A DNA stretch of 64,000 bases from an uncultured Bacteroidota bacterium. GTDB taxonomy: Bacteria > Bacteroidota > Rhodothermia > Rhodothermales > DATKEJ01. Made by a program: the position numbers and the translations under genes. The stretch lies in contig CAVYJC010000008.1 in NCBI GenBank assembly GCA_963768715.1, positions 19,831 through 83,830 on the forward strand. The letters are read 5' to 3'. The notes below the pieces were generated by a model. It did no database searches. It was not told where the DNA came from and saw only the letters and a list, made by a program, of their open reading frames with translations. Every line of letters begins with the position of its first letter. The stretch's first letter is position 1. Positions 12,410-55,675 of the stretch are shown piece after piece.

Positions 12410-13413
12410 GCGAATCACCAAAGTCTGACTCGAAGTCGATCATATCCCACCTGTTCACTGTAGCCCGGCAGCTTTCGAGTTCCGGTGGACCGAGTTCGGG
12501 TCGAGACGGCTCGTCGAAGGGGATCGCTATTTTCTTGTCCATCGTGGCTTCCATCCTGATCTGGTTCATGATCAGCATGCGCGAGTCCTATTCGGTCGTC
12601 AGAAATTTTCCAACAACCGTCGTCAACCTTCCGGAGGATCGCGCTTTGCGTTCGCCTCCTCCGGCTGAGGTTCGTGTCCAATTGGAGGGACGAGGATGGC
12701 AGTTGCTCAAATTGATTACATCTCCGCAGAAAATTCGCCTCGACGCCTCGACGCCCACGGTAGACCTGTATCGGGCTACGGCAGAGAGTCTCCCCTCCGA
12801 CGTCCGGCCGCAGAGCGTCAACCCGCCTGAAATCCGTCTTCGAATGGAACAGCGAGCGTTTCGTCGTCTACCGGTGGAGGTCGTCGCAGACATCAAGACG
12901 GTGGAGCCATACGATCTCGTGCATCCCGTGCGGGCTTTGCCCGAGTCGGTAGCTGTTGCGGGTGCGGCCTCGATCGTTGCCAGCCTGAATTCATGGAAAA
13001 CCAAGCCGTTCGAGCGGGACAAGGTCAATGAATCTTTTACCCAGTACGTTCCACTCTCCGATACACTCAAAGGTCTGATCGATCTCGACTTCTCCAACGT
13101 CTTGCTCGAGGCCGAAGTGGTCGAGTTCACGGAAAACCAGCGTCTTCTCGACGTGAAGGTGATCGATGCGCCTGCCGCGGCAAATCGCTACGAGTTGATG
13201 CCGGATCGGGTGTCAGTACGCTACACCGTACCGATTACGCAATTCGAGGCTTCGGCTATCAGTGATTCGTTCTACGCCACGGTTCCATATCCCGTGATCG
13301 TTGCGGATACGACGGGTCGCGTCGAGCCTGACATTCACATCCCGGCCGACATGGTGGTCAAGGATTTGATCGTCGAAACGCCCCACCTGCAGTATTACGT
13401 GATACTGGAATAG
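12406..13413 (+). CDS. YbbR-like domain-containing protein
   Basis: Start taken at ATG 12406 (ORF track 12340). N-terminal TM helix followed by repeated YbbR-type beta domains (VVNLPED..EVRVQLEGRGWQL). Stop TAG at 13411-13413. Confidence 0.65.
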   Translation: MSESPKSDSKSIISHLFTVARQLSSSGGPSSGRDGSSKGIAIFLSIVASILIWFMISMRESYSVVRNFPTTVVNLPEDRALRSPPPAEVRVQLEGRGWQLLKLITSPQKIRLDASTPTVDLYRATAESLPSDVRPQSVNPPEIRLRMEQRAFRRLPVEVVADIKTVEPYDLVHPVRALPESVAVAGAASIVASLNSWKTKPFERDKVNESFTQYVPLSDTLKGLIDLDFSNVLLEAEVVEFTENQRLLDVKVIDAPAAANRYELMPDRVSVRYTVPITQFEASAISDSFYATVPYPVIVADTTGRVEPDIHIPADMVVKDLIVETPHLQYYVILE

Positions 13414-13481
13414 GTCCGTGGTCCGTGGTCCGTGGTCCGTGGTCCGAGGTCCGAGGTCCGAAGTCCGAGTCCGAAGTCCGA
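13413..13481 (+). repeat. heptanucleotide tandem array (GGTCCGT)4(GGTCCGA)3 plus 3 degenerate units
   Basis: Counted directly. The first G is the last base of the TAG stop at 13411-13413. About 10 units with a 7-nt period. Confidence 0.95.
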
Positions 13482-13545
13482 GAGCCTGCCCCGAGCGAGC
13501 GAGACGCTGCACAATCGTCGTCGTGATGTGTGCCGAGCGACGAGG

Positions 13546-13559
13546 GGTCCGAGGTCCGA
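13546..13559 (+). repeat. satellite copy of the same heptamer (GGTCCGA x2)
   Basis: ggtccgaggtccga read directly, 65 nt downstream of the main array. Confidence 0.8.
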
Positions 13560-13751
13560 AGAGTGACTAATGGACCAATGGTTGTGTGCCGGATGAAAGT
13601 GCCTCCCTTTAGGCAGATCGTGGCGAAGTCTCTCCTCAAGAACTGCCCATCTTGAGCGGTTTCGCGCATTGTGCACGTTTGCCGGCCGTCAACGACCGGC
13701 CTCAAAGCTGCGGCCGGTGGACCGGCCTTCTCTGGAGAGAACATCTGGCAA

Positions 13752-13806
13752 GCCCCGTTTACGGGGCGTCGCTTCAAGACCGGGCATCGATGCCCGGGAA
13801 TGACGG
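13752..13806 (+). repeat. conserved intergenic hairpin module (copy 1)
   Basis: Two perfect hairpins: gccccg-ttta-cggggc (13752-13767) and ccgggca-tcga-tgcccgg (13780-13797). By hand alignment the first 30 nt match the reverse complement of 33194-33238 at 27/30 positions. The 3' end CGGGAATGACGGA recurs on the minus strand at 53037-53049. Confidence 0.8.
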
Positions 13807-13894
13807 ATTGTGCCGAATGTCGAACTCACGCAAGTCCGACCCCCGAACAAACCGGCGGACACGTTCATTTGTCACATAACCACTAATGACTAAG

Positions 13895-14356
13895 TCAGGC
13901 GGGGTAGGTCGGGTCGAGGAAGTAGCTGCGCATCTGGATGATCTCCAGCTCCTTCAGGCTCCTGTCCTTACGCAATATGTCGCGTAGTGACACGACTCCG
14001 AGGATCCGTTTGCCGTCGGCCACAGGGATGTGACGGCACTTCTTCGTATCCATTAGGTGGAAGACGTCAGTTGCCCGTGTTCGGGCATCGACTACCGCGA
14101 CATCCTGCGTCATGACGTCGTCCATGAGCGTCGTGGCAGGGTTGAGATTCTTCGAAACCACGCGTTTCACGAGATCTCGTTCAGTAAAAATCCCGCAAAG
14201 CTCGGTCTTGTCGTCGAGTACAAGAACGGAACCGACATTGTGCTGGTCCATGAGTTGGACGGTCTCTTGTACAGTCGACGACGGCGTTACGAAGACGATA
14301 GCGCGGCCGCTTCGCAGCAGGTCTCCTATTCGTTCATACATGGTGGTCCTCCGCAA
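13895..14356 (-). CDS. CBS domain-containing protein
   Basis: 153 aa with a tandem CBS pair pattern (HNVGSVLVLDD...GIFTERDL; CRHIPVADG.RILGVVSLRDIL). Confidence 0.85.
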   Translation of the reverse strand: MRRTTMYERIGDLLRSGRAIVFVTPSSTVQETVQLMDQHNVGSVLVLDDKTELCGIFTERDLVKRVVSKNLNPATTLMDDVMTQDVAVVDARTRATDVFHLMDTKKCRHIPVADGKRILGVVSLRDILRKDRSLKELEIIQMRSYFLDPTYPA

Positions 14357-14445
14357 CGGAAAGGTGGATGTGATTTAAAGGGACTATATGATACCCGCCA
14401 ATCAACTTTGGGTTCACGTAATCTCCATAAAAGAATTGCCTACCG

Positions 14446-15843
14446 TCAGGATCGAGCAGGTTTTGTCGCTTCCTGAAACAGTCTTCTGCGGTCCCTCTTC
14501 GACCCATCCGCCCAGTCGGGAAGTGGCAACACGCGCTCCGGAATTTTGAAGCCGGGAAGGACCCGGGCCAGGGCGATTAGAAGCTCTTCAGGATTGTGTA
14601 AAGGCCTTACATAGGCGACGGGACGCGCCCCGAAGCGGTCGTCGGGCACTGGTACGACTATGGCAAGGTCGGCCAATCCAGTCGTCACGATTGCCTCTTC
14701 GATTTCTTCGGGATAGACGTTCTCGCCGCCCGAAATGAATTGATTGTCTCGTCGTCCCATGACAATCAAATGATCACCGTCGAGTCTTCCAAGATCGCCG
14801 GTTGCGAACCAGCCGCCCACATCGAAAGGCGTGTCCAGCCCGCCATCCTTCCAGTATCCGGCAAATCGCGTCCCCCCTCCGACGAGAATCTCGCCCTCAG
14901 CGATGCGAACCTTTCGATGGGGGAGGATGCGGCCGGCGTAGCCCGGGTGTTCGCCGGCGTCGCCACGATCCGTCGTCGCGATCTGGGAGGCCATCTCAGA
15001 CGAGCCGTAAGTAAATCTCACGGCCAGGCCGCGCGCAATTGCCTCCGACCTGAGACGGAACGGTGACGGAGCGCCCCCGACAAGGATGGTGTCCAGCGAA
15101 GACGCGAGGCCACGGTCACTACTCGCCAGCCAATCCTTAAGCTGTGTAGGGACGATGGAAACATGAGTCACTCCGAAGGCCGTCAGTGCCGACAATCCTC
15201 GCTCGCGGGGATCAGGAACCACGACCGTTCCACCGTATCGAAGGCACCGGAAGAAGATGCTCAGACCGCCCACATGATACTTCGGGATCACTGCAGCCCA
15301 TCTGGTCCCGGTCGAGACTGGGATGATCGATTGAGAGCCTTCTGCGCTGAGCCAGTGATTCCTCAGTGTGTGCAACACAGCCTTTGGACGGCCTTCCGAA
15401 CCGGAAGTGAAGACGATCGTGGCCGGAGCATCGAGATCAAGGGTATGAGGGCGCCCGTCAGGGCTTCGGGAGCGATCCTGCGTGAGCGAGCCGGGATCGA
15501 CAACCGGCAGGGCCGTCAGATTTGGGCGGTCGCTCAGCAAGAGCACGCAGCCTGTCGAACGAATTGCCTCGGTCACGGCCGACTCCGGATCTCGGTCGCT
15601 CAACAGGACGGCCGTGGCGCCAAGTCGCAGCAAGGCCCAGAGCGCAATCGAAAAGTCGAGCCCGTCGCTCACTTGCATGCCGATCCTGTCACCGCGACCC
15701 ACCCCCCGATTCCCGAGCCGGTGGGCCGCCTCGGATACCAGCTCATGGAGTTCGGCGTAAGAACAACTCCCAGAACTTGAAACGACAGCCGGGTGGTCGG
15801 GAGCCGCCCGCGACCATGCGGCGATGGGACACGGGATGCTCAT
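14446..15843 (-). CDS. menE: o-succinylbenzoate--CoA ligase
   Basis: AMP-binding enzyme (IVFTSGSEGRPKAV, GYG.SE-like and GDLG motifs). It is the last gene of the men operon, and its start overlaps the menC stop (15840-15843). Confidence 0.8.
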   Translation of the reverse strand: MSIPCPIAAWSRAAPDHPAVVSSSGSCSYAELHELVSEAAHRLGNRGVGRGDRIGMQVSDGLDFSIALWALLRLGATAVLLSDRDPESAVTEAIRSTGCVLLLSDRPNLTALPVVDPGSLTQDRSRSPDGRPHTLDLDAPATIVFTSGSEGRPKAVLHTLRNHWLSAEGSQSIIPVSTGTRWAAVIPKYHVGGLSIFFRCLRYGGTVVVPDPRERGLSALTAFGVTHVSIVPTQLKDWLASSDRGLASSLDTILVGGAPSPFRLRSEAIARGLAVRFTYGSSEMASQIATTDRGDAGEHPGYAGRILPHRKVRIAEGEILVGGGTRFAGYWKDGGLDTPFDVGGWFATGDLGRLDGDHLIVMGRRDNQFISGGENVYPEEIEEAIVTTGLADLAIVVPVPDDRFGARPVAYVRPLHNPEELLIALARVLPGFKIPERVLPLPDWADGSKRDRRRLFQEATKPARS

Positions 15844-16913
15844 CGATTCTCGGTTTCGACACTCTCAGGCGCAAAAACCAGATCAGCCTGGCGAATGACG
15901 TGTCCAATCTTCAGCTTCCGCCGTAAGACGTCGGTTTCGAGGCGGCTGTATGTGTCAAGGCCGGCCGCGGGACCCTCAGGGCACCAACGTGCCGCGAGGC
16001 ATGCCAGGATCGAAATGCCCAAACCCGATTCGTAGCAAGCGCTAACGACGGGCGTTATTCCCAACTGTTTTCCCGCCGCGATGAACGTCTCGCTCGCCGT
16101 GATTCCACCCAGAAGTGTCGGTTTGACCACGAGGTGGGTGACGAACGACCATGCTCCGAGACCGGGCGGTTCGATCTCGAGGAGTGTTTCATCCAGTGCG
16201 ATTGCCGCACCGGTTATTTCCCACAGTTTACGGGCATCCAGTGGCTCCGCCAGCGGTTCCTCGATGAACGCAGGCCGTACGGTCTGCGTCGCCTCGATGA
16301 ATTCGGCTGCCTCGTCAAGCGTCCATGCTCGATTGGCGTCCAGTCGCAACTCGACGTCGTCGCCCACCATGGCTCGGATCGCCAGTATCGTTTCGGCCTC
16401 CCGGTGGAGGTCATGTCTCCCAACCTTGATCTTCAGCGCGCGATAACCATGGTTCGCAAGGATTCGCACCCGCTCGAGGGCGCGCTCGCCCGAGCCGGTG
16501 ATGAGTCCCGCAATCTGCACGGTACTGTGCCACCCGGGCGCTATCACATCGGAGGAACGTGTCCCAAGAATGTCGGCTGTGAGGCCGGTCAGTGCCTGCT
16601 CAAGCCCGAACGTCAGCGACGGACAGGATTGCGTCCCCAGTTCGACACTCATTCGCCAGGGCTCGTTCGGATCCCAAACCAGCTTGCGCCCACCCGAAAC
16701 CTTCGCACTTAGCGCCTCCCATGACTTGTCGACGTCATCGATCGTCTCCCTGCTGAATTCCAGCAGAGGGGCCGTATCGCCCCATCCGACGTTGCCGCCG
16801 CTCGTTTCGAGTCGGACGAGTCGTCCCGTCCGCTCACGACCCGCGATGCTCCCCGCCGAGAGGCGAGTCGCATACGGAATAAGCCGAGCCGACGATATTC
16901 TTAGATCAACCAC
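15840..16913 (-). CDS. menC: o-succinylbenzoate synthase (enolase superfamily)
   Basis: Enolase-superfamily metal-ligand blocks (LKIKVG, LRLDANRAW, IEEP, ALDE). Start is uncertain: the track ORF runs to 17078, well inside menA. GTG 16913 is the first in-frame start limiting the overlap to 13 nt. Confidence 0.7.
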   Translation of the reverse strand: MVDLRISSARLIPYATRLSAGSIAGRERTGRLVRLETSGGNVGWGDTAPLLEFSRETIDDVDKSWEALSAKVSGGRKLVWDPNEPWRMSVELGTQSCPSLTFGLEQALTGLTADILGTRSSDVIAPGWHSTVQIAGLITGSGERALERVRILANHGYRALKIKVGRHDLHREAETILAIRAMVGDDVELRLDANRAWTLDEAAEFIEATQTVRPAFIEEPLAEPLDARKLWEITGAAIALDETLLEIEPPGLGAWSFVTHLVVKPTLLGGITASETFIAAGKQLGITPVVSACYESGLGISILACLAARWCPEGPAAGLDTYSRLETDVLRRKLKIGHVIRQADLVFAPESVETENR

Positions 16914-17818
16914 GTCAATGAGAATACGAGGCTGTAGACGATTGATAGCCGGCCGGTGAATCCCAACAGGGGATTCAGCGCCGCTCCATCGACGCCACCG
17001 AGAACCTTTCGAAATACTGGGAATGCCAGCACCAGCATCAAACCGGCGAGCATCGACCATGGATGGTTGCCCGTCCATGCAAACAGGCCGACCGGAACGA
17101 GCGCGGCCGCAATGACCGACGCCACATACTCCCAGCGCGCGAACCGCTCACCAAATCGAACGGCGAGTGTGCGCTTTCCCACTTTGAGGTCTTCGTCGAC
17201 GTCACGAAGATTGTTGACCGACAGCAGGGCGACTGAGAGGAGCCCCGGACCCAGACCGGCGCCCACCGCTGTCCAGGAGAGTGAGAGCGCCTGAACATAA
17301 TGCGTCCCCGCCACGGCAACCGGTCCGAAAAATAATAGCACAAAGAGATCACCTAAGCCTATATAACCTAATGGCTTAGGCCCGGCTGTATATAAAATAC
17401 CGGAGATGATTGACAGCAAGCCGACGAGGAGTATCGGCCAGCCTCCTCGGACGATAAGGTAGATTCCTGCTGCCAGCGCGATTCCGAAGGCGACGACGGT
17501 GCCTGCCAGAACCGTTCGAGGGGTGAGGAGGCCCGACTGTGTCACGCGTGTCGGTCCTTTCCGGTCGACGGTATCGGCGCCGCGGTGGAAATCTGCGTAG
17601 TCATTGACGAGATTCGTGCCGATCTGGATTCCGAGTGCTCCGACACCCGCGAGTGCCGCCGACACCCAGTGTACGCTGCCCTCTCCAAGAGCGATGGCGG
17701 TGCCGACCACCACGGGTACGAACGCAGCCCAGAGCGTCTTGGGCCGGATGGCGAGCCACCAGGACATGGCGTGGGAATTCGGCGGACTCGCGCCGCCGTC
17801 GGATAGGGTAACGCTCAC
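16901..17818 (-). CDS. menA: 1,4-dihydroxy-2-naphthoate polyprenyltransferase
   Basis: UbiA-family polytopic protein with NDYADFHRGAD and the second Asp-rich motif NNLRDVDED. Confidence 0.9.
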   Translation of the reverse strand: MSVTLSDGGASPPNSHAMSWWLAIRPKTLWAAFVPVVVGTAIALGEGSVHWVSAALAGVGALGIQIGTNLVNDYADFHRGADTVDRKGPTRVTQSGLLTPRTVLAGTVVAFGIALAAGIYLIVRGGWPILLVGLLSIISGILYTAGPKPLGYIGLGDLFVLLFFGPVAVAGTHYVQALSLSWTAVGAGLGPGLLSVALLSVNNLRDVDEDLKVGKRTLAVRFGERFARWEYVASVIAAALVPVGLFAWTGNHPWSMLAGLMLVLAFPVFRKVLGGVDGAALNPLLGFTGRLSIVYSLVFSLTWLI

Positions 17819-17821
17819 GGC

Positions 17822-18643
17822 TCAGGGATAGCGCGTGAACTGATCAAAATCGGGGTCGCGCCGCTCGTTGAACGCATTGCGTCCTTCCTGTCCCTCTTCC
17901 GTCATGTAAAACAGGAGGGTCGCGTTGCCGGCAAGTTCCTGGAGGCCGGCCTGACCGTCGCAGTCCGCATTCAGCGCCGATTTCAAGCAGCGGATGGCCA
18001 TGGGGGATTTCCTCAGAATCTCTCGACACCAGTCGACCGTCTCCTCTTCGAGCCGTTCCAATGGGACGACCGTGTTGACCAGACCCATGGCCTGCGCCTC
18101 TTGCGCGTCATAGGGACGACAAAGAAACCAGATTTCTCTGGCTTTCTTCTGGCCGACAATGCGGGCGAGGTACGAAGCCCCGTAGCCGCCGTCGAAGGAG
18201 CCGACCTTGGGTCCCGTCTGCATGAATCGTGCATTTTCGGCTGCGATCGTGAGATCACACATCACGTGCAGGACGTGACCTCCGCCGACTGCCCATCCGG
18301 CGACCATGGCGATGACGGGTTTCGGGCAGGTGCGAATCTGTCGCTGGAAATCGAGTACGTTCAGGCGCATCGTGCCCGAGCCGTCTTTGTAGCCTGCGTC
18401 GCCCCGGATTTTCTGGTCGCCGCCCGAACAGAATGCCTCGGGCCCTTGGCCGGTGAGTATTATGACGCCGACGGCAGGGTCATTTCGGGCATCCAGCAGT
18501 GCATGCGACATCTCGTCGACCGTCTGCGGTCGGAACGCGTTGCGAACATGCGGCCGGTTGATCGTGATTTTGGCGATGCCTTCCGTCTTGTGGTAGAGAA
18601 TATCCTCGAAGCGGCCGGCCTCGATCCAATCGATGGCGCTCAT
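17822..18643 (-). CDS. menB: 1,4-dihydroxy-2-naphthoyl-CoA synthase
   Basis: Crotonase fold. The translation from ATG 18643 ([41 protein letters not shown]) is MenB-like. Confidence 0.9.
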
Positions 18644-18724
18644 GATAAAGGCGATGTGTTTGGTTTGGGGCCGAAATATAGGAAGAACAGAAGTCCGCCT
18701 CACTCGAACGAGTGATCCTCAGCC

Positions 18725-21975: not shown

Positions 21976-22024
21976 GGTACGTGGTACGTGGTACGTGGTA
22001 CGTGGTACTTGGTACTTGGTACTT
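21976..22024. repeat. heptanucleotide tandem array (GGTACGT)4(GGTACTT)3
   Basis: Counted directly. Lies in the 252-nt divergent region between the menF start (21844, minus strand) and ORF 22097 (plus strand). Confidence 0.95.
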
Positions 22025-22096
22025 GAGTTGCCCGTCGTAGCTGCCGTATCCGAAGTTGTGCTCGTTCTTTAACTTGATCGTAAACCTCATCGTTTC

Positions 22097-26760: not shown

Positions 26761-28593
26761 ATGTGCGGCATTGTTGGCTACGTCGGCACCAGACAGGCAG
26801 ATGCAGTACTGCTTGCAGGCCTCAAGCGTCTCGAGTATCGAGGCTACGACTCAGCGGGCATTGCCGTCGTGGATGGCGGCCTCGAGTGCGTCAAGAAGCA
26901 GGGCAAGGTTGCCGATCTCGTCGCGCTTCTCGATGGGGGACTGAAAGGCGTCGTCGGCATCGGGCATACGAGGTGGGCGACGCACGGTGTCCCGAATGAC
27001 GTGAATGCACACCCGCATCTATCCTCCGATGGGCGATTTGCCCTCGTCCACAACGGGATCATCGAGAACTACGTCTCACTCCGTGAACGACTGATCCAGT
27101 CAGGCTACAAATTTCGGAGCCAGACCGATACAGAAGTTCTCGTCCATCTCATCCACGAGGTGGCCACGCAGACGGGACTCACACTTGTTGAGGCGGTGCG
27201 TCAGGCCCTGACGCAGGTGATCGGCACCTACGGCATTGCCGTTGTCTCGGCGGATGAGCCGGATATGGTAATCGCGGCCCGGAGCGGGAGTCCACTGATT
27301 CTTGGTGTCGGAGACGGCGAGTACTTTGTTGCGTCCGATGCCTCCGCAATCGTCGAACACACGAATCAGGTCGTCTACCTCAACGATGGAGAAATGGTCG
27401 TCATCAGGCCGACCGGGTTCGAGGTCACGACCATCGACAATGTCATCCTCGACAAGGAGACGCATCGTCTGGAATGGGATCTTGAGCGAATTGAAAAGGG
27501 CGGCTACGAGCATTTTATGCTCAAGGAGATCATGGAGCAGCCCGATGCTATTCGGGACTGCCTTCGCGGGCGCATCAGATCTGAGGATGCGACGATCAAA
27601 TTGGGCGGGCTTATCGACGTGCTGGATCGGTTCAAAGACGCGCGGCGCATCCTTATCTGTGCATGCGGCACGTCCTGGCATGCCGGTCTGGTCGGCGAGT
27701 ACCTTTTCGAAGAATTTGCTCGCATCCCTACGGAGGTCGAGTACGCGTCGGAGTTCCGGTATCGTAACCCGATCGTCTATTCCGATGACATCGTAATCGT
27801 GATTTCCCAGAGCGGGGAAACCGCCGATACACTCGCTGCGGTTCGTGAGGCCAAATCGAAAGGCGCCTTGGTGCTCGGCGTTTGCAATGTCGTGGGCTCC
27901 ACGATTGCCAGGGAGACCGACGCCGGAGTCTATCTGCACGCAGGCCCGGAGGTCGGCGTCGCCTCGACAAAAGCTTTCACGGCCCAGGTTGCGGTCCTCG
28001 TCATGATGGCGCTGACGGCGGCAAAAGAGCGAGGGACGATGTCTGAGGCGGAGATTGCTGCGATCCTACGCGAGCTGGAGGAGATCCCCGATAAGATTAC
28101 GTTGGTGCTCGAGACTGACGACAAAATTCTGCAGTTGGCCAAAATCAACCGCCTGGCTTCCAACTTTCTTTACATGGGTCGAGGATACAACTTTCCCGTG
28201 GCGCTGGAAGGAGCCCTGAAACTCAAGGAAATCTCCTATGTGCATGCCGAAGGATATCCTGCAGCGGAGATGAAACATGGTCCCATTGCACTCATCGACC
28301 GGTTGATGTCCGTGGTCGTAATCGCGATGAAGGACTCGACATATCCGAAGGTCGTCAGCAATATCGAAGAAGTTCGCGCCCGCGGAGGGCTCGTTTTGGC
28401 GATCACCGATCACGAAAACCACGAACTCGACGATTTGTGCGAGTTCGTGCTTCGCGTCCCGCCAACGGCAGCCTGCCTTGCGCCTCTCCTGACCGTGGTT
28501 CCGCTCCAGCTTCTTGCGTACCATATGGCGGTATTGCGCGGTTGTGACGTCGACCAGCCTCGCAATCTGGCGAAGAGTGTCACTGTCGAATGA
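26761..28593 (+). CDS. glmS: glutamine--fructose-6-phosphate aminotransferase (isomerising)
   Basis: Starts MCGIVGYVG. Two SIS domains. Ends KSVTVE. Confidence 0.97.
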   Translation: MCGIVGYVGTRQADAVLLAGLKRLEYRGYDSAGIAVVDGGLECVKKQGKVADLVALLDGGLKGVVGIGHTRWATHGVPNDVNAHPHLSSDGRFALVHNGIIENYVSLRERLIQSGYKFRSQTDTEVLVHLIHEVATQTGLTLVEAVRQALTQVIGTYGIAVVSADEPDMVIAARSGSPLILGVGDGEYFVASDASAIVEHTNQVVYLNDGEMVVIRPTGFEVTTIDNVILDKETHRLEWDLERIEKGGYEHFMLKEIMEQPDAIRDCLRGRIRSEDATIKLGGLIDVLDRFKDARRILICACGTSWHAGLVGEYLFEEFARIPTEVEYASEFRYRNPIVYSDDIVIVISQSGETADTLAAVREAKSKGALVLGVCNVVGSTIARETDAGVYLHAGPEVGVASTKAFTAQVAVLVMMALTAAKERGTMSEAEIAAILRELEEIPDKITLVLETDDKILQLAKINRLASNFLYMGRGYNFPVALEGALKLKEISYVHAEGYPAAEMKHGPIALIDRLMSVVVIAMKDSTYPKVVSNIEEVRARGGLVLAITDHENHELDDLCEFVLRVPPTAACLAPLLTVVPLQLLAYHMAVLRGCDVDQPRNLAKSVTVE

Positions 28594-28630
28594 CGGTGCG
28601 CCGCCTTTCGTTGAGCAAGTTTGGATCAAG

Positions 28631-29731
28631 ATGTTAAGTGAGTCACACCTGAAGGAGATCCGGCAGCATTTCGCCGAGCTGACCGCGGTGATGGCCCGCC
28701 CGGAGATCGCTACCGACCCCACGCGCATGGCGGAGTTGGGAAGGGAGCACGCGCGTCTCGAGCCGGTCATCGGATCGGTCGAACGATACCTCGGTCTCGT
28801 TTCCGAGCTCGAAGATCTTCGCAGCATGCGCGATACGGAGGATGCTGAATTGGTCGAGCTCGTGGCCGATGACATCGAACGCGTGGAATCCGAGCTCGAA
28901 GATCTCGAAGATCGCCTGGAAATACTGCTGCTGCCTACTGATCCGCTCGACGAAAAGAACGCAATCGTGGAGATTCGGGCGGGAACCGGCGGCGACGAGG
29001 CAAGCCTTTTCGCGGGCGATCTGTATCGTCTGTATTTGCGGTTCGGTGAAGCCAACGGATGGAAACTGGAGGTCCTGTCCAGCTCTCCGGGCACTCAGGG
29101 AGGATTCAAAGAGATCATCTTCGGACTTGCGGGAACGGGAGTATTTGGATCCATGAAATATGAAAGCGGCGTCCACCGCGTGCAGCGCGTTCCAGCGACC
29201 GAATCGAGTGGGCGCATCCATACGTCGGCGGCGACCGTGGCGGTGCTTCCCGAAGCGGCACAGGTCGACGTGAACATCAGTGCCGAAGATCTCGAGATTG
29301 ACGTCTATCGCTCCAGTGGTCCGGGCGGCCAGAGCGTAAACACGACCGACTCCGCCGTTCGCATCACCCATATTCCCTCGGGACTCGTCGTCACGTGCCA
29401 GGACGAGAAGAGCCAGTTGAAGAACAAGGACAAGGCGATGCGCGTGTTGCGTGCGCGGCTCTTCGAAATGGAACAGTCGAAGCTCGACGCAGAGCGAAGC
29501 GAAGCTCGTCGATCGATGGTGGGATCAGGCGATCGTTCGGCCAAGATCCGAACTTACAACTGGCCCCAGGGGCGAGTGACCGATCATCGACTCGAAGGCG
29601 ATGACAAGAACCATGCGCTCCAGAGGATCATCGACGGTGACCTGTCCGATATCCACCGGGCGCTCAAGCTGGCGGAAAACGCAAGAAGGCTGGCCGGAGA
29701 AGAATACCAAACGGCAAACAGCAAACAGTAA
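28631..29731 (+). CDS. prfA: peptide chain release factor 1
   Basis: ATG 28631. PAT tripeptide (VQRVPATESSGRIHTS) identifies RF1. GGQ motif (SGPGGQSVNTTDSAV). Confidence 0.95.
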   Translation: MLSESHLKEIRQHFAELTAVMARPEIATDPTRMAELGREHARLEPVIGSVERYLGLVSELEDLRSMRDTEDAELVELVADDIERVESELEDLEDRLEILLLPTDPLDEKNAIVEIRAGTGGDEASLFAGDLYRLYLRFGEANGWKLEVLSSSPGTQGGFKEIIFGLAGTGVFGSMKYESGVHRVQRVPATESSGRIHTSAATVAVLPEAAQVDVNISAEDLEIDVYRSSGPGGQSVNTTDSAVRITHIPSGLVVTCQDEKSQLKNKDKAMRVLRARLFEMEQSKLDAERSEARRSMVGSGDRSAKIRTYNWPQGRVTDHRLEGDDKNHALQRIIDGDLSDIHRALKLAENARRLAGEEYQTANSKQ

Positions 29732-29859
29732 ACTTGAGCCCGGACAGATATTTTCTGTTTCAGGTTTCAAGTTTGAATCATATCTTACTAAGCTTTAATG
29801 ACCCTGCCCCAAGCGGTCCATATTGGGGCTTCATAAACTGGAATCCACAGGGAGGACCT

Positions 29860-33238: not shown

Positions 33239-33283
33239 AGCTCGGCGATTGCATCGTCAAGGAATCGGATTTTACCCCGAGTT

Positions 33284-33336
33284 CCATCCTCCATCCTCCA
33301 TCCTCCATCCTCCATCCTCCATCCTCCATCCTCCAT
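33284..33336. repeat. heptanucleotide tandem array (CCATCCT)7 plus partial unit
   Basis: Counted directly: seven perfect units plus CCAT. There is no G on the plus strand across 53 nt. Confidence 0.95.
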
Positions 33337-46557: not shown

Positions 46558-46563
46558 AGGCGA

Positions 46564-47361: not shown

Positions 47362-47494
47362 GCGGGCGAAGAGCCGTTGAAAGGATGGTTACCTGGTGGA
47401 TCTTGGCGCCGAAGTTAGCGATCGGTGGACGATTTTGGCAGTGCGTTGCGGACACGATCATCGGCACGGCCTCTCCTAACCCATTTCACTCTGG

Positions 47495-47776
47495 TCAAGA
47501 ATCGCGAACTCCAAGCGAATCACGAAGGAATTCACAGGTCATATCGGCCAGCTCGGGCGGTGGCTCGGGAGCGGGCATATCCTTCAACATGCGGAGCGTC
47601 TCCCTGTACTGCTGGAGATAGCGTTCGCAGTTCGGACACATCGCGATGTGCTCTTCGAACTTGTGAACGGTCTTTTCGCTGAGCCGGCCTTCGAGATAAT
47701 CGGCCAGGAATGCCGCTACCGTCCGACACGTCGGCAGTCCACGGACCATATGGGTAAGCTTCTTCAACATTGTCAA
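47495..47776 (-). CDS. anti-sigma factor, zf-HC2 type
   Basis: H-x3-C-x2-C motif (EEHIAMCPNCERY). Start overlaps the stop of the ECF sigma gene. Confidence 0.75.
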   Translation of the reverse strand: MTMLKKLTHMVRGLPTCRTVAAFLADYLEGRLSEKTVHKFEEHIAMCPNCERYLQQYRETLRMLKDMPAPEPPPELADMTCEFLRDSLGVRDS

Positions 47777-48351: not shown

Positions 48352-48563
48352 CGGAAACTTGTTACAGGCTGTGCCTCTATTGATTCCTCGCGAAGAAACT
48401 ATGAGGCGGCGTGATCCAAGACAACAATGGTTTAATGTAGGGCGCCGGATTCGTCCAATTGTTCGAACGATTCCGTTGAATGACGTATCTTAACCAGTCT
48501 ATCCCGGATGCGGAATTGACCCTGCGATCCGGCGAACACCACGGCAAACGAGATACCTCATCT

Positions 48564-49706: not shown

Positions 49707-49744
49707 CTTTTGGGCTTTGAGCTCGACTAACCAGTTTTTCAGAT

Positions 49745-50731
49745 ATGGCAGAACTTCAGCTTAGAGAGGCGCTCCGCGCGGCGATGGTCGAGGAGATGGA
49801 GCGCGACGAGACCGTGTTCCTTTGCGGCGAGGAGGTCGCCGAATACGACGGCGCCTATAAAGTCAGCCAGGGCATGCTCGAAAAGTTCGGTTCGAAACGT
49901 GTGATCGATACACCGATCAGCGAGTCCGGCTTCTCAGGTCTCGGAATCGGTGCGGCTATGGTCGGCTTGCGGCCCATCGTCGAGTTCATGACATGGAACT
50001 TCTCCTTCGTCGCGTTCGATCAGATCATGTCGAACGCGTCAAAGATTCGCTACATGTCGGGTGGCCAGTTCAAGATCCCAATCGTCTTCAGGGGAGCAAA
50101 CGGCGCCGCCGGACAGCTGGCCGCTACACACTCCAACTCCACGGAGTCGCTCTACGCCACGATTCCCGGCCTCAAAGTGATCAGCATTTCTAACCCGGAC
50201 GACGCAAAAGGCCTGTTGAAGTCTGCGATCCGCGATGATGACCCGGTTCTTTTCATGGAAAGCGAGTTGATGTACGGACTCAAGGGCGAGGTTTCGGACG
50301 AAGAGGACTACATCATCCCTATCGGGAAAGGCCGACTCGCTCGCGAAGGCGACGACGTCACCATCGTCGCGCACAACAAGAGCTACTGGATCGCCATGGA
50401 AGCCGCGGAAGAGTTGGCAAAGCAAGGTTACGAGGCGGAAGTCATCGATCCCAGGACGATTCGTCCGCTCGACATCGATATGATTCTCGAGTCGGTCCGC
50501 AAAACGAATCGGCTTGTCGTCGTCGACGAAAGCAACCCCTTCGCGAGTATCGCCTCGGAGATCGGATTTCAGGTGCAGCAGAAAGCTTTCGACTATCTAG
50601 ACGCGCCAATTGCACGCGTGACAACGAAAGACACGCCGGCGCCCTATGCCAAGAATCTGATCGAACACTTCATGCCGTCTGCCGACGAGACGATCGCTGC
50701 GTGCAAGCGTGTGATGTACATCAAGGACTGA
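49745..50731 (+). CDS. pdhB: pyruvate dehydrogenase E1 component subunit beta
   Basis: GEEVAEYDGAYKVSQG..FG..RVIDTPISE and the transketolase C-terminal domain. Confidence 0.93.
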   Translation: MAELQLREALRAAMVEEMERDETVFLCGEEVAEYDGAYKVSQGMLEKFGSKRVIDTPISESGFSGLGIGAAMVGLRPIVEFMTWNFSFVAFDQIMSNASKIRYMSGGQFKIPIVFRGANGAAGQLAATHSNSTESLYATIPGLKVISISNPDDAKGLLKSAIRDDDPVLFMESELMYGLKGEVSDEEDYIIPIGKGRLAREGDDVTIVAHNKSYWIAMEAAEELAKQGYEAEVIDPRTIRPLDIDMILESVRKTNRLVVVDESNPFASIASEIGFQVQQKAFDYLDAPIARVTTKDTPAPYAKNLIEHFMPSADETIAACKRVMYIKD

Positions 50732-50758
50732 TGATCCAAACCACTGACTTTATTAGAC

Positions 50759-52033
50759 ATGGCGATTGCAGTTGAAATGCCGAAAATGAGTGACACCATG
50801 GAAGAAGGTGTCCTCGTCTCGTGGCTGGTTAAAGAGGGTGCGGAGGTCTCGGCGGGCGATATCATCGCGCAGGTCGAAACCGACAAGGCAACGATGGATC
50901 TCGAAGTCTACGACGACGGTGTGCTGCTCAAGATTGTTTCCGAAGAGGGGGCGTCGGTTCCCATTGGGGGACTGATTGCGGTTCTCGGTGAGAAAGGTGA
51001 GGATATCTCCGGCGTCCTCGAAAAGTATCGAGGGGACGGGGCCCCGAGCGAAAAGGCATCCGAACCCGAACCGGCGTCGGCCGATGAGGAGAAAACCGCA
51101 TCGCGCGAAGCCCCGGAGCCGAGCGGTGACGGCGCCGTCAGCAGCGCAAACGGGAGGCTGAAGGCTTCTCCGCTCGCCCGGCGAATGGCGGCGGACAAGA
51201 AACTCGATCTCAGCGGGGTCACGGGATCGGGTCCTGAAGGACGCATTATCAAGCGGGACATCGAGGCGGCGCTCGAGCGTAAGGCAACGGGCGCTCCCGC
51301 GGCAATTTCCAAGGCGCCCGCAATCAAGGGAGAGGGCGAGTACGAAGCGATTCCGATTTCGCAGATGCGTAAGACGATCGCACGTCGCCTCGGAGAGAGC
51401 AAGTTCACATCGCCGCACTTTTATCTCAATGTCGACATTGACATGGAGCGTGCGATGGCCGCTCGGGCATCGATCAATGAAGCGGCGGAGGGGACGGATC
51501 GCCCCAAAGTTTCTTTCAACGACCTGATCGTCAAAGCTTGTGCGATGGCGCTCCGTCTGCATCCGGCCGTAAATGCCTCCTGGGTAGCGAGTGAGGGAGA
51601 GATGCGTCGCTACAGCGACATCCACGTGGCTGTCGCCGTCGCAATCGACGACGGACTGGTGACCCCGGTGATTCGGAACGCGGATCGGAAGGGACTCGCG
51701 CAGATCGCCGTTGAAAGCAAGGATCTTTCAACGCGTGCGCGCGAGCGAAAGCTCGATCTGGAAGAAATGGAAGGATCGACGTTTACGACGAGCAATCTCG
51801 GGATGCTCGGCATCGATCATTTCACGGCCATTATCAACCCGCCGAATTCCTGTATCCTCGCGATCGGGGCGATTCGGGACGTACCGGTGGTAAAGGGTGG
51901 CGCCGTCGTACCCGGCAAGCGGATGACGGTGACATTGTCGTGCGATCATCGAATTGTCGATGGAGCTACCGGAGCTCGCTTCCTGGCAACCGTGAAGCAG
52001 TTTCTCGAAGAGCCGACTACCATGCTCCTTTAA
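50759..52033 (+). CDS. pdhC: dihydrolipoamide acetyltransferase (PDH E2)
   Basis: Lipoyl domain (VETDKATMDLE), E3-binding domain (ASPLARRMAADKKLDL), catalytic DHRIVDGA. Confidence 0.92.
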   Translation: MAIAVEMPKMSDTMEEGVLVSWLVKEGAEVSAGDIIAQVETDKATMDLEVYDDGVLLKIVSEEGASVPIGGLIAVLGEKGEDISGVLEKYRGDGAPSEKASEPEPASADEEKTASREAPEPSGDGAVSSANGRLKASPLARRMAADKKLDLSGVTGSGPEGRIIKRDIEAALERKATGAPAAISKAPAIKGEGEYEAIPISQMRKTIARRLGESKFTSPHFYLNVDIDMERAMAARASINEAAEGTDRPKVSFNDLIVKACAMALRLHPAVNASWVASEGEMRRYSDIHVAVAVAIDDGLVTPVIRNADRKGLAQIAVESKDLSTRARERKLDLEEMEGSTFTTSNLGMLGIDHFTAIINPPNSCILAIGAIRDVPVVKGGAVVPGKRMTVTLSCDHRIVDGATGARFLATVKQFLEEPTTMLL

Positions 52034-52152
52034 TTCGAACCGTCCGCATCCGGCGACGATTCACATTCCGACAATCCAAATGCGCAGCTTCGGACGAAAG
52101 GGCGTGCGGAACCACGGACTCTGGACGACTGACAACGGACCAGGGACGTGAC

Positions 52153-52947
52153 ATGGTCGTCGCCCACGTGTCAGATATCCATTTCGGCCGTCTTTCGACA
52201 GAAAATATCGTAGGGGCTCTCCTCGCCGATATCGACGACCACGATCCGTCGCTCGTTGTCATGAGCGGCGATCTCACGCAGCGCGCCCGCGTTTCCCAAT
52301 TCCAGGCTGCCGCCGAAATGATCTCCCAACTGAAGGCGCCCGTCATGGTGGTGCCTGGCAACCATGACATCCCAGCCTGGTATCGGCCCTATACGCGGCT
52401 TTTCAATCCGGTCGGACGATATGTTCGCTACATAACGCCCGAGCTGCAGCCCACATTTCAGAGCGACAAGCTCGCTGTGGCAGGCATCAATACCGCTCAT
52501 GGCCTGACGATCAAAGGTGGGCGGATCCGCGATGAGCAGGCCGCCTTTCTGAGAGGATTCTTCCACCAGGTTGCGCCGCGAGCATTTAAGATCCTCGTTC
52601 TGCATCACCACTTGGTCAAGATGGCCAAATTGGGCGTCCACGACGTCGCACGGTCTGCCCGGAGTGCGCTGGATGTAATCGGCGAGGAAGAGGTGGATCT
52701 GGTTCTGTGCGGCCACCTGCACATTTCAAGCGTTCAGTCGTTCCCGGTTCACGGGGGCAAGCATCATATGGTTGTCGCGAGTGCCGGGACGGCGACCAGC
52801 TCGCGAGGTCGCGGGAAGGACCGCCGTGAGAACTTCTACAACATTGTGCATATAGCAGACGACCACTTCGTCGTCGAGGAACGCGCGATGGCCGACGACG
52901 GGAAAACGTTCACCTTCGTGAGGGAACATCCGTTTTCTAGGGACTAG
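52153..52947 (+). CDS. metallophosphoesterase
   Basis: ATG 52153. VSDIHFG, SGDLTQRA, GNHD, HHH and GHLH motifs. Stop TAG at 52945-52947. Confidence 0.8.
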   Translation: MVVAHVSDIHFGRLSTENIVGALLADIDDHDPSLVVMSGDLTQRARVSQFQAAAEMISQLKAPVMVVPGNHDIPAWYRPYTRLFNPVGRYVRYITPELQPTFQSDKLAVAGINTAHGLTIKGGRIRDEQAAFLRGFFHQVAPRAFKILVLHHHLVKMAKLGVHDVARSARSALDVIGEEEVDLVLCGHLHISSVQSFPVHGGKHHMVVASAGTATSSRGRGKDRRENFYNIVHIADDHFVVEERAMADDGKTFTFVREHPFSRD

Positions 52948-52951
52948 TTTC

Positions 52952-53043
52952 GTCCGAAGGTCGAAGGTCGAAGATCGAAGGTCGAAGGTCGAAGGTCGAT
53001 GATCGAAGGTCGAAGGTCGAAGGTCGAAGGTCCGAAGTCCGTC
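52952..53043 (+). repeat. heptanucleotide tandem array: GTCCGAA, then 10 GGTCGAA-type units (incl. GATCGAA x2, GGTCGAT x1), then GGTCCGAA GTCCGTC
   Basis: Counted directly. Begins 4 nt after the TAG of the metallophosphoesterase gene. Confidence 0.95.
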
Positions 53044-53063
53044 ATTCCCGCGAAGGCGGGAAT
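53044..53063. repeat. REP-like perfect hairpin attcccgc-gaag-gcgggaat
   Basis: 8-bp stem with a 4-nt loop, read directly. The flanking GTCATTCCCG is the reverse complement of CGGGAATGAC at 13795-13804. Confidence 0.8.
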
Positions 53064-53160
53064 CCAGGATAAGTCTTCGAATCTTCAGGTCGGGAACGAA
53101 GAAGGCTGGTCGTTCAGCTCAGAATGAATCTCGGATGGGTCGACTCACCGCCTGCGCCAC

Positions 53161-53231
53161 GGACCGGACTCGGACGGACGGACCCCGGACTCCGGACGAC
53201 GGACCCCGGACCCCGGACCCCGGACCCCGGA
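53161..53231 (-). repeat. heptanucleotide tandem array; the minus strand reads T(CCGGGGT)4 followed by about 6 degenerate GTCCGNN units
   Basis: Four perfect ACCCCGG units on the plus strand at 53203-53230. The array abuts the TAG stop (53234-53232) of the minus-strand cation-transporter-like gene. Confidence 0.95.
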
Positions 53232-53952
53232 CTATTCATGACACTCACACGTCTCGCCCTTTAACGCTTCGATCCCTTCGTTCGTGATGATCGGAACCAT
53301 GATGAGCGCCGCTGCGGGATCAGCCCACCACCATCCAAAGAGCGCATTCAAGCCCAGTCCGATGAGTAGAATCGCCGAGAGGTACATGCAGAGGTCCGTC
53401 TGACGGGAATCGGCCTCGAGCGCGCGGCTGTTGATGGATCGGGCCACCTTGCGCTTTGCGTTCGCCAGGACTGGCATCACGACAAGCGAGACGGCAGCTA
53501 CGATGATTCCGACCAGACTTTCATCCGGCGCCTCCTGGAGCCAGAGGGCTTTCCCAGCGTCCAGGGCCACATAGGCAGCTAAGAGAAGGAAGGATACGCC
53601 TACAAGCTGAAGGGCGCGTTTTTCGCGTTTCTCGGCTTCCTCTCCGTCCTGCAGGCGCCAGAGCAGCACCCCGCCCGAAGAGCTTTCGATGGCCGAGTCG
53701 ATTCCGAACCCGATGAGTGCTGTGCTACCGGCGACGACGCCGCTCCCAACCGCGACCACCGCCTCCAGCAGGTTCCAGCCGATAGTGAAGTACTCGAGGC
53801 GACGACCCCGCCGGACCAGGTTCGTGTTCTTGGTCCTTCTCCCTGGTTCCTCGTCGGTGGGGGAACGGAGCCGTCATTTCCGTGGGGCTGGAATCCGGAT
53901 CGTTGAGCGCAGGTGTGGGCTCCGGGATTTGGTTCTCCGTCGACGGACTCAT
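53232..53952 (-). pseudogene. small cation-transporter-like membrane protein (CDF-like TM region), frame change at a G5/C5 run (53859-53863)
   Basis: ORF 53232..53759 continues upstream without a start codon (..RRGRRLEYFTIGWNLLEAVVAVG). ATG 53952 (MSPSTENQ..) is in another frame. The two frames meet at gttcccccacc. Confidence 0.5.
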
Positions 53953-54051
53953 CTCCTTGATGTCCCCTTGGTTGTGGCAGTCGTCAATGAACGCTAAACG
54001 CAAAACGCTAAACTACTTCGTCAGGTCATGCCTGGCACGCATTCTCGTGCG

Positions 54052-54082
54052 CTCGGACCCCGGACCCCGGACCTATCCAGAC
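54052..54082 (-). repeat. short heptamer array; the minus strand reads GTCTGGA TAG GTCCGGG GTCCGGG GTCCGAG
   Basis: Read directly. It starts at the base following the pckA TAG stop (54085-54083). Confidence 0.85.
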
Positions 54083-55675
54083 CTATTCCCTCGGCCCGGC
54101 GCGTCTGACCGCCTCGTCCACGCGGCCTGCATACCGCTCGAAGTTCGCCTTGAACATGCCGGCCAGTTTTCGGGCCTGTCGGTCGTAGGCATCCGCGTCG
54201 CCCCATGTGTTCCGGGCTGAGAGAACGCGAGACGGCACGCCGCTGACCTTCTTGGGTACTCGAAGGCCGAAGAAGGATTCGGCCGTGACAGGCACGTCGT
54301 CGAGCCTGCCGTCGAGGATGGCATCGAGCATGGCCCTCGTATGGTCGAGTTTCATGCGTGAACCGACGCCGTACGGTCCGCCTGTCCAGCCTGTATTCAC
54401 CAGCCAGCACGTCGATCCATGCTTACGGATGCGCGCCGCGAGCATTTCGGCGTACTCGACCGGGTCGAGCACCATAAAAGGCTCTCCGAAGCACGCGCTG
54501 AATGTGGCCTGAGGTTCCGTGACGCCCTTTTCGGTGCCTGCGACCTTCGCCGTGTATCCAGAAAGAAAATGATACATCGTCTGCTCGACGGTGAGCCGGG
54601 AGACGGGCGGCAAGACGCCAAATGCGTCGGCGGTGAGCATGATCACGTTCTTGGGGTGACCGCAGTGGCCGCGACCGGACGCATTCGGGATGAAATGAAT
54701 TGGATACGCGGCCCGGGTGTTTTCAGTGATGGAGTCGTCGTTGAAATCGATCTCCCGCGTCTGCTCGTCCAGCACCACATTTTCGGCAACGGTGCCGAAT
54801 CGTCGCGTCGTTGCGTAGATCTCGGGCTCGCCATCCTGTGAGAGCCTTATGAGTTTTGCGTAGCAGCCACCCTCGAAGTTGAAGATCCCCTCATTGCTCC
54901 AGCCGTGTTCGTCGTCGCCAATGAGCGTCCTCGACGGATCGGCCGATAGCGTCGTCTTGCCGGTTCCGGACAGGCCGAAGAAGATCGCTGCGCCGCCGTC
55001 GCCGTCGTTCGCCGAACAGTGCATCGGAAGAACGCCGTGTCCGGGGAGGAGGTAGTTCAGCGCCGAGAAAACGGATTTCTTAATCTCCCCGGCGTAGCCC
55101 GTTCCTCCGATGATGACGAGTCTCCGCTCAAGGTTGAGAATAATGAAGGCTTCCGACTGCGTGCCGTCGGTTTTCGGATCCGCCTTGAACCCACTGAAGT
55201 TCAGCACGGTCAGTCGCGGCTCAAATTCACGCAGATCCGCAGGCTCCGGTCGCAGGAACATGTTGTGGACGAAGAGATTGTGCCACGCCTGTTCGTTTAC
55301 GACTCGAACAGGCAATCTGTATCGCGGATCGGCGCAGGCGAAGACGTCCCGGACGAAAAACTCGCGGTCCTTGGCATATCTCGCCATCTTTGAGAGGAGG
55401 TGGTCGAACGCATCTTCGGTGATCTCCACGTTCACCGCCCCCCAAGCGACGCGGTCAGACGATTCGCCCGCATCTACGACGAAACGATCATTCGGCGACC
55501 GGCCGGTGTAGGGCTGCGTGACGGACACGAGCGGTCCCGCAGCGGCCAGACGTGATTCTCCCCGCTTGATCGCCAGTTCATACAATGCAGGCGGAGACTC
55601 GCAGTAGTGGAGCTTGCTTGCCGGGAGGAATCCGAGCGACTCGAGATGGGTAATAACGTGATTCGGGATGTTCAT
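54083..55675 (-). CDS. pckA: phosphoenolpyruvate carboxykinase (ATP)
   Basis: ATG 55675 (MNIPNHVITHLESLG). Kinase-1a GLSGTGKTTLS. IGDDEHGW and NTGWTGGPYG motifs. Confidence 0.95.
   Translation of the reverse strand: MNIPNHVITHLESLGFLPASKLHYCESPPALYELAIKRGESRLAAAGPLVSVTQPYTGRSPNDRFVVDAGESSDRVAWGAVNVEITEDAFDHLLSKMARYAKDREFFVRDVFACADPRYRLPVRVVNEQAWHNLFVHNMFLRPEPADLREFEPRLTVLNFSGFKADPKTDGTQSEAFIILNLERRLVIIGGTGYAGEIKKSVFSALNYLLPGHGVLPMHCSANDGDGGAAIFFGLSGTGKTTLSADPSRTLIGDDEHGWSNEGIFNFEGGCYAKLIRLSQDGEPEIYATTRRFGTVAENVVLDEQTREIDFNDDSITENTRAAYPIHFIPNASGRGHCGHPKNVIMLTADAFGVLPPVSRLTVEQTMYHFLSGYTAKVAGTEKGVTEPQATFSACFGEPFMVLDPVEYAEMLAARIRKHGSTCWLVNTGWTGGPYGVGSRMKLDHTRAMLDAILDGRLDDVPVTAESFFGLRVPKKVSGVPSRVLSARNTWGDADAYDRQARKLAGMFKANFERYAGRVDEAVRRAGPRE

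Follow-up and report, generated by a model that had tools for sequence, protein, structure and literature searches.

The window analysed here, a 64,000-nt stretch of contig CAVYJC010000008.1, is part of a metagenome-assembled genome (MAG) of the Rhodothermales that is rich in tandem heptanucleotide repeats of several unit families. Four of its arrays, named A to D, are built around a GTCCG core and begin immediately after the stop codons of four genes. We identify them with high confidence as heptamer repeats that obey a rule of polarity, in which the G-rich strand adjoins a gene boundary with its 5′ end. It follows that the G/U-rich strand is found in the mRNA after stop codons, and the C-rich strand in the mRNA before start codons. 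Such arrays are heptanucleotide simple-sequence repeats that are resized by slippage and lie in a polar fashion at gene boundaries; their orientation is probably filtered by mRNA structure.

Direct reading of the window finds GTCCG on the strand of the preceding gene in 4/4 arrays, each starting 0–4 nt past a TAG, as a preliminary description of this DNA had reported. The coordinates are collected in Table 1. Array B is separated from the metallophosphoesterase stop by 4 nt (TTTC) and is properly a GGTCGAA array, with GTCCG confined to its end units. Array C contains five GGGG tracts, four of them in perfect units with 3-nt spacing, and array D contains two; arrays A and B have GG at most.

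The gene identities first proposed hold as well. Pfam matches among the host genes are PEPCK_ATP, Metallophos and Cation_efflux, and PF07949 (YbbR-like) is carried by distant homologues of the gene preceding array A. The stops are native. The C-terminus of PckA (...AGPRE*) aligns with its relatives, the named ones being Rubricoccaceae, Longibacter, Rubricoccus and Rubrivirga. The phosphoesterase (P0138) is 100% identical to a database protein of 264 aa, and MGA7305600.1 ('MAG: Rhodothermales bacterium') belongs to the same cluster at 90%. The cation-transporter-like (CDF-like) protein has 84% identity over 195 aligned residues to a 203-aa relative, up to the last residue of the window protein. 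Its Pfam coverage (profile positions 73–187, without the C-terminal domain) had raised the suspicion that the gene was cut off by array C; the alignment with this syntenic relative rules the truncation out. At its other end, the CDF-like frame (53760–53840, minus strand) aligns with the same relative from residue 8, the homologous start lacks ATG, GTG or TTG, and the first canonical start is a GTG at 53759. The gene may have a non-canonical start or be decaying.

Table 1 Heptamer arrays of the window, the stop codons they adjoin and a palindrome between arrays B and C
Feature	Position	Strand	Remarks
TAG stop, YbbR-like gene (ORF 12340-13413)	13411..13413	+	AG/G common to the stop and the first repeat unit
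Array A, (GGTCCGT)4(GGTCCGA)3, then degenerate AGTCCG(A) units	13413..13482 (end approximate)	+	Direct reading
Non-repeat segment of ~65 nt interrupting array A	13483..13545	+	Missing from L281, a relative at 93% identity
Distal remnant of array A, GGTCCGAGGTCCGAAG	13546..13562	+	Direct reading and comparison with L281
(GGTACGT)4(GGTACTT)3	21976..22025	+	Divergent promoter region; unit family of (ACCAAGT)n in L279
(CAAACAG)3.7	29708..29733	+	Encodes the C-terminal tail of RF1 (prfA), includes its TAA stop
(TCCATCC)7.7, perfect, G-free on the mRNA strand	33283..33336	+	93 nt past the dsbD TAG, 34 nt ahead of a ComF-like ORF
TAG stop, metallophosphoesterase	52945..52947	+	TGA here in close relatives
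Array B, GTCCGAA, ~10 GGTCGAA-type units, then GGTCCGAAGTCCG	52952..53041 (end approximate)	+	Direct reading
Palindrome ATTCCCGCGAAGGCGGGAAT, ATTCCC-N8-GGGAAT, perfect	53044..53063	.	Between convergent arrays B and C
Array C and stop, TAGTCCG(GGGTCCG)4, then degenerate units	53164..53234 (TAG 53234-53232)	-	After the CDF-like gene
(TAGCGTT)3.4 on the gene strand, i.e. (AACGCTA)3.4	53990..54013	-	Second heptamer array of the pckA-CDF spacer; found with Tandem Repeats Finder
Array D and stop, TAG GTCTGGA TAG (GTCCGGG)2 GTCCGAG	54052..54085 (TAG 54085-54083; repeat 54082-54052)	-	After pckA

The arrays far exceed chance expectation. GTCCGNNGTCCG dimers occur 19 times in the window against 0.48 expected, and 19/19 are inside the four arrays, so that the window has no GTCCG array after a TGA or TAA. 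Exact period-7 runs number 10, compared with 0–1 for each of the periods 6 and 8–12. In unrelated metagenome DNA, sampled as matches to PckA (relatives at 53–60% identity, nearly free of heptamer arrays), one such run is found in 800 kb. Period 7 accounts for 37 rows of Tandem Repeats Finder (TRF) output in the loci of the lineage. Given a TAG usage of ~25–30% in the window (a crude count), four TAG stops out of four correspond to p ~0.004–0.008, computed post hoc.

Several known classes of element were compared with the arrays. The units are contiguous and 7 nt long, in contrast to the 20–50-nt repeats with unique spacers of CRISPR. The array-bearing spacers hold neither a hairpin followed by a U-tract nor a consensus promoter, and the sole match to the terminator consensus (53812–53824) falls within the CDF-like ORF and is no more than chance would give. 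On both counts, neither CRISPR nor classical terminators, the preliminary description was right. Over the whole window, Rfam gave 0 matches at gathering score, and a scan for tRNA and tmRNA gave no match. The imperfect palindrome of 20–40 nt that makes up REP/BIME elements is unlike the tandem heptamers seen here. The suggested resemblance to STRR repeats stands in a broad sense: units of 7 nt follow each other head to tail without spacers, belong to several families, are mostly non-coding and vary in length by whole units. It does not extend to STRR in the strict sense, since the host belongs to the Rhodothermales and not to the heterocystous cyanobacteria, and the units are GTCCGNN, GGTCGAA and others in place of STRR1-3.

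Syntenic contigs of relatives, obtained via protein searches and exact-gene look-ups, give the arrays a history. At site A, a 93%-identical relative (L281) has TAG (GTCCGGG)2(GTCCGAG)3 GTCCAAT, followed by the sequence found ~65 nt farther on in the window. As its repeat runs directly into that sequence, segment 13546–13562 is the tail of array A, split by an insertion. An 83%-identical relative (L282) reads TAG GTCCGTG GTCCGTC GTCCGTG..., up to the contig end within the array. The position of array A, its TAG and the GTCCG core are thus kept in both relatives, while NN and copy number differ. Taken with site D, core and position are kept in relatives of 81–93% identity.

Site D is more variable. 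The 97%-identical relative (L277) has TAG GTCCGA GTCCGAG only, through a 19-nt indel within array D between largely conserved flanks. In the 87% relative, TAG is followed by (TGCATGG)2. The 81% relative has TAA, 3 nt and then seven units of GTCAGAA, GTCCGAA or GTCCGAG, and two further heptamer-based arrays occupy the rest of the spacer. The stop of the 79% relative (L287) is within (TTCTTAG)n; in the 69% relative we found TAA and no array. In L287 (5960–6021), PckA ends in ...GGPILGS, with four additional residues that seem to come from the array, and the TAG is inside the repeat. Here the repeat has seemingly grown across the former stop codon and replaced the end of the protein sequence.

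At site B, the stop is TGA in relatives of ≥90% identity, and behind it is a TCGATGA proto-array of 3 units, which can be aligned with the 12-unit GGTCGAA array of the window, and divergence from these close relatives starts exactly at the stop codon. In a 78% relative (L283), (TAGTCAT)3 supplies the TAG stop as its opening triplet. At site C, the TGA stop of an 81% relative is within (GATGATY)4-5, and close relatives, including L285, keep a reverse CGGACCA array. Finally, loci L279 and L280, which encode an identical PckA protein, have one spacer that differs solely by a 21-nt, 3-unit indel in (CTTGGTG)n. Together with the 19-nt indel in array D, this bears out the expectation that copy number varies between strains; among near-identical strains the two variable bases of the unit change as well. 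The contigs of four relatives (L282, L283, L285 and L287) end within heptamer arrays, which act as short-read assembly breakpoints.

From these comparisons, the arrays arise and change length in place, by whole units, via slipped-strand mispairing. An array that starts at the stop is general in the lineage, with unit family and stop codon varying from site to site.

The same layout is found far outside the Rhodothermales. We scanned for (GTCCGNN)x4 in one genome per species, covering Acidobacteriota, Planctomycetota, Verrucomicrobiota, Chloroflexota, Actinomycetota, Myxococcota, Bacteroidota and others, and obtained at least 117 loci; all cross-phylum counts in this text are among the matches listed. 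With arrays defined by GTCCG, 23 have their 5′ end no farther than 15 nt from a stop in the same orientation, against 7 for the opposite geometry. TRF run on the same loci yielded 203 heptamer arrays, 181 of them intergenic, whose orientation was set by the G-rich strand. For distances of ≤15, 16–50, 51–100 and 101–300 nt, respectively, these were counted as follows: from the 5′ end to a co-oriented stop, 34, 12, 12 and 12; from the 3′ end to an opposite-strand stop, 8, 7, 13 and 22; from the 5′ end to a divergent start, 17, 19, 12 and 12; from the 3′ end to a downstream co-oriented start, 10, 8, 17 and 29. As a proxy for the gene start, we took the first start codon that the open frame offers past the array. 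Among the 181 intergenic arrays, the asymmetry amounts to 34 vs 8 on the stop side within 15 nt (p = 7 × 10−5), and to 36 vs 18 within 50 nt on the side of starts. For the 95 arrays outside the GTCCG type, which the search pattern hence had not picked, the counts are 16 vs 2.

Stop abutment and strand lock, both put forward from the window alone, therefore recur at orthologous sites and in the cross-phylum sample. What decides the strand is another matter. Arrays within 50 nt past any stop are, on the sense strand, G-rich in 13 cases, intermediate in 23 and C-rich in 0. (GCGGACG)n arrays come after TAG in CGGAC orientation, with the core reversed, because their NN renders that strand G-rich. 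Polarity is set by G-richness and not by the reading direction of GTCCG, contrary to the initial proposal.

Inverted pairs of GTCCG arrays are polar too: 17 are convergent and 0 divergent, with recognisable gene ends on both sides in only 2/17 of the convergent ones. Arrays B and C of the window form one such pair. Several convergent pairs (L023, L054, L061, L083, L124 and L140, some of them in Planctomycetota) have an inner palindrome GTCCGTTGC...GCAACGGAC in common, which suggests a distinct family of hairpin elements with heptamer arrays as arms. The palindrome ATTCCCGCGAAGGCGGGAAT between arrays B and C is present in a single copy in the window, within a block of ~175 nt missing from close relatives; this ATTCCC-N8-GGGAAT motif is of the same form as the Neisseria dRS3 repeat. 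A scan of viral contigs, which are heterogeneous and poorly annotated, returned 87 arrays with little stop association (8 vs 8) and was not used further.

The preference for TAG is weaker than the window alone implies. Under the first array definition, TAG makes up 8/23 of the stops, not significantly more than the background of 0.26 (p = 0.23). Among TRF arrays oriented by G-richness it reaches 19/34 (p = 2 × 10−4, same background), and for any period-7 run within 50 nt past a stop 16/36 vs 188/735 (odds ratio 2.3, p = 0.019). In the lineage, TAG is found at 7/11 stop-abutting arrays, a post hoc count. Part of the excess is shared by array-free downstream sequence, where TAG precedes G-rich DNA in 31% of cases and C-rich DNA in 20%. 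TAG is a moderate (~2-fold) preference, partly compositional, and not an anchor. The observation that no GTCCG array follows TGA or TAA remains true of the window and fails in relatives and other phyla. TAG is likewise no requirement in the lineage, given the pckA of a relative with TAA, 3 nt and a GTCAGAA/GTCCGAG array, and the TGA within (GATGATY)n.

The tight abutment itself stems from the form of the unit, NN+GTCCG with a free NN. An array of this kind can extend into the stop, sharing AG or G with TAG; the first unit is AG-GTCCG after T at sites A and D, and TA-GTCCG at site C. We considered (TAGTCCG)n as an ancestral, TAG-bearing form of GTCCG arrays. It is ruled out, as NN=TA is not over-used.

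We turn to RNA to account for the polarity. Folded as RNA, the G-rich strand is more stable than its complement in 151/203 arrays of the cross-phylum sample, at -0.24 vs -0.16 kcal/mol/nt. Three window arrays folded on both strands agree (-22.7 vs -14.7, -40.6 vs -30.8 and -27.6 vs -22.5 kcal/mol, G-rich strand first). The G/U-rich transcript would self-pair, GGUCC with GGUCC, making use of G-U pairs, and at convergent genes the inverted partner array would complete a long hairpin. Directly past a stop such structure may be tolerated or useful, as a 3′-end barrier or a terminator without U-tract, and an unstructured C-rich array would be avoided there. It is well established that the translation initiation region needs to stay open. 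Beside start codons the structured version would be selected against. The observed polarity is in line with an open initiation region on one side, and with structure being beneficial, or at least tolerated, at the 3′ end of the transcript on the other. In high-GC bacteria, terminators tend to have long stems and short U-tracts, and 3′ ends peak ~50 nt past stops (PMC13613805). That the arrays act as terminators or stabilisers is a tentative possibility.

Several points weigh against orientation being filtered by structure. Sense arrays are no more stable than their dinucleotide shuffles (z from -1.3 to +0.7). For the whole convergent spacer, z is +0.38 (plus strand) and -2.2 (minus strand), which makes a long inter-array hairpin of the window unconvincing as a terminator for both directions. 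Neither array A nor array D has an inverted partner. Close relatives lack array B and unrelated heptamers occupy site D in the 87% relative, so that selection on any single array is weak. The census loci were seeded by one GTCCG pattern, and the ORFs used to place them, open frames of at least 100 codons passed through a GC-frame test, are crude calls. Composition explains the residual 2-fold excess of TAG only in part.

The simplest rival is that the arrays are neutral junk, slippage-prone repeats without a role that occupy the first unconstrained DNA and expand up to the coding sequence. Their rapid turnover, with loss or replacement among close relatives, the many unrelated unit families in the same spacers, the onset of divergence precisely at the stop codon and the folding z-scores short of significance are all as expected from such junk. 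Yet neutrality predicts equal orientations, and the counts are 34 vs 8, 16 vs 2 and 17 vs 0, with 0 C-rich arrays after stops; moreover, the GTCCG core and its position are kept at sites A and D while NN drifts. We hold such wholly neutral arrays to be possible but doubtful. A more ambitious reading unites heptamer arrays, whatever their sequence, in one cross-phylum class of polar boundary elements that prefer UAG and actively define 3′ ends or stability, for example through a structure-based or R-loop-based terminator without U-tract; their C-rich strand would keep initiation open and slippage would tune expression. This we regard as unlikely. An assembly artefact of repetitive short reads is scarcely credible: the contig ends within arrays show that these disturb assembly, but independent assemblies from different samples and pipelines have the same array sites between conserved flanks, and hence the arrays are real.

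Other rivals invoke a dedicated partner. The arrays could belong to an element that seeds or inserts at TAG, or that works with UAG and release factor 1 (RF1) in termination. The 4/4 of the window, the 7/11, 19/34 and 16/36 given above and the TAG-containing units of relatives, (TAGTCAT)n and (TTCTTAG)n, would fit. This idea nonetheless meets TAA- and TGA-anchored arrays in the same lineage and in other phyla, the unremarkable 8/23 of the other array definition, the commoner TAG before array-free G-rich sequence and an NN=TA that is not over-used. Insertion, as once envisaged, leaves no signature, strain differences being unit indels between collinear flanks; we find the whole proposal quite improbable. 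A link to Rho is very unlikely, whether Rho would be loaded by the sense array and so end the transcript of the gene, or by the C-rich complement in antisense or convergent transcripts that have yet to enter the gene. Intrinsic terminators were not found nearby, antisense array RNA has C>G and is weakly structured, and, on the start side as on the stop side, it is always the C-rich version that transcription approaching an ORF reads. However, sense RNA has G≥C and is more structured than its complement, the reverse of a Rho utilisation (rut) site, and 0 arrays past stops are C-rich in the sense strand. In rut sites C exceeds G, and Rho subunits engage 5 nt with linkers of 4–5 nt, for a period of ~9–10 and not 7 (PMC12360218). 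Composition and period rule out Rho loading on sense RNA. A platform on which a protein recognises a 5-nt core at intervals of 7 nt, be the protein a HutP- or TRAP-like ring, a cooperative RNA binder or a DNA binder, would match the constant core with its drifting 2-nt spacer at orthologous sites, the use of all 16 NN in GTCCGNN arrays across phyla and the typical copy number of 3–8. It sits badly with the exchange of unrelated families at one site (GTCCGNN, TGCATGG and TTCTTAG after pckA) and with the core variants GTCAGAA and GGTCGAA, and no candidate protein was identified. A polarity common to arrays of any sequence argues against one sequence-specific reader, and we give this platform very little credence. 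The elemental pause consensus of RNA polymerase (G-10, Y-1, G+1) was also considered and, by hand reasoning, misfits the unit register.

The window contains further heptamer arrays (Table 1). The prfA gene (28514–29731; RF1, with its PAT motif) takes its ...EEYQTANSKQ end and TAA stop from the (CAAACAG) array, and rpsF comes directly after it. RF1 is the factor that reads UAG. The (TCCATCC)7.7 array holds a repeated CCTCC and agrees with the pattern of C-rich arrays before starts. The ACCAAGT/CACCAAG family (equivalent to AAGTACC) is found at unrelated sites in two genomes, namely at 21976–22025 in the window and at L279 11751–11793 and 7784–7797 and L280 1380–1414. Each occurrence precedes a gene start on the mRNA strand, and one array of L279 stops 4 nt short of the CDF ATG. 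TAGTCAT-like units are present on the window's minus strand at 13880–13900, after the stop of a CBS-domain gene, and at 13565–13590, near 13570. In relatives they appear as (ATGACTN)2 at L281 11033–11050 and as (TAGTCAT)3 at the TAG stop of L283 (10795–10818). By this distribution, they form a second stop-associated unit family of the lineage.

Heptamer over-representation has been known in many bacterial genomes since 2007. The present case adds a Rhodothermales lineage and a simple rule that is valid across phyla and unit sequences. If the arrays function at the RNA level, they would be a widespread and fast-evolving means of setting mRNA 3′ ends in GC-rich bacteria without canonical terminators. 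Should the cross-phylum class be real, slippage in copy number would provide a tunable, heritable dial on the expression of single genes. For MAG annotation, the arrays matter in that they break short-read assemblies and can alter stop codons and C-terminal residues.

Among known systems, REP/BIME elements of enterobacteria are located in 3′ spacers, often between convergent genes, form inverted pairs and hairpins and have been proposed to stabilise or terminate mRNA. REPs are imperfect palindromes of 20–40 nt spread by RAYT transposases. The arrays share with them the 3′ spacer location and the inverted pairs, and differ in being slippage-driven, head-to-tail heptamers. The STRR heptanucleotide repeats of heterocystous cyanobacteria, reportedly described by Mazel and colleagues in 1990, likewise comprise several spacer-free tandem heptamer families dispersed in the non-coding DNA of one genome. 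They belong to another phylum and have other units, and a stop-anchored polar layout is not known to be part of their definition.

Three heptanucleotides of Calothrix PCC 7601 are cited in PMC4692102. The TAACTGA repeats of Beggiatoaceae, cyanobacteria and Bacteroidetes are abundant in intergenic DNA and follow a strong rule of orientation relative to ORFs; their arrays differ by 7-nt length steps between strains and can overlap stop codons (MacGregor 2015, PMC4679880). TAACTGA is mostly found just upstream of starts, and its unit has stops in all frames, which are absent from GTCCG units; the (TAGTCAT)n, (TTCTTAG)n and (GATGATY)n of our relatives do carry stop codons, as TAACTGA does. In Geobacter metallireducens, 49 elements of four heptamers, GGACCGG or GGGACCG, were annotated as putative regulatory RNA (Aklujkar et al. 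2009, PMC2700814). GGACCGG is one base (central A vs T) from GGTCCGG, the unit of (GTCCGGG)n, both being GGWCC+GG. The Geobacter elements are also found within genes, and the accessible text on them makes no mention of polarity or stop adjacency.

The closest counterparts are the GGGAATC repeats of Xanthomonas and the GGGGA(C/T)T repeats of Nostoc, described by Rehm et al. 2015 (PMC4692102). They are 7-nt tandem repeats, commonly of ~4 copies and mostly intergenic, almost always nearer to the ORF on their 5′ side, at a mean distance of 28 nt, than to the one downstream. After genes they are mostly 0–50 nt from the stop and on the coding strand, some overlapping the stop; before genes they are on the non-coding strand. 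Each genome has 70–75 convergent pairs, position is kept between species while length is not, and the repeats contain transcript ends or starts at a rate somewhat above that of controls. A stop-anchored precedent therefore exists, which the preliminary description had not been aware of, and the geometry is already described for these heptamers. A literature search returned no paper on Rhodothermales heptamers, and a follow-up on GGGAATC gave primer sequences only.

The present arrays resemble the Xanthomonas and Nostoc repeats in their stop-proximal geometry on the coding strand, their convergent pairs and their conserved position with variable length. They differ from them in unit sequence, in lineage and in the presence of several unit families with shared behaviour. 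Tracts of G3-4 with G-quadruplex potential are found here in (GTCCGGG)n arrays only, not in A or B. The available portions of PMC4692102 hold no mention of a stop-codon preference. What may be new in our case is that the polar rule is independent of unit sequence and reaches across phyla, together with a modest excess of TAG.

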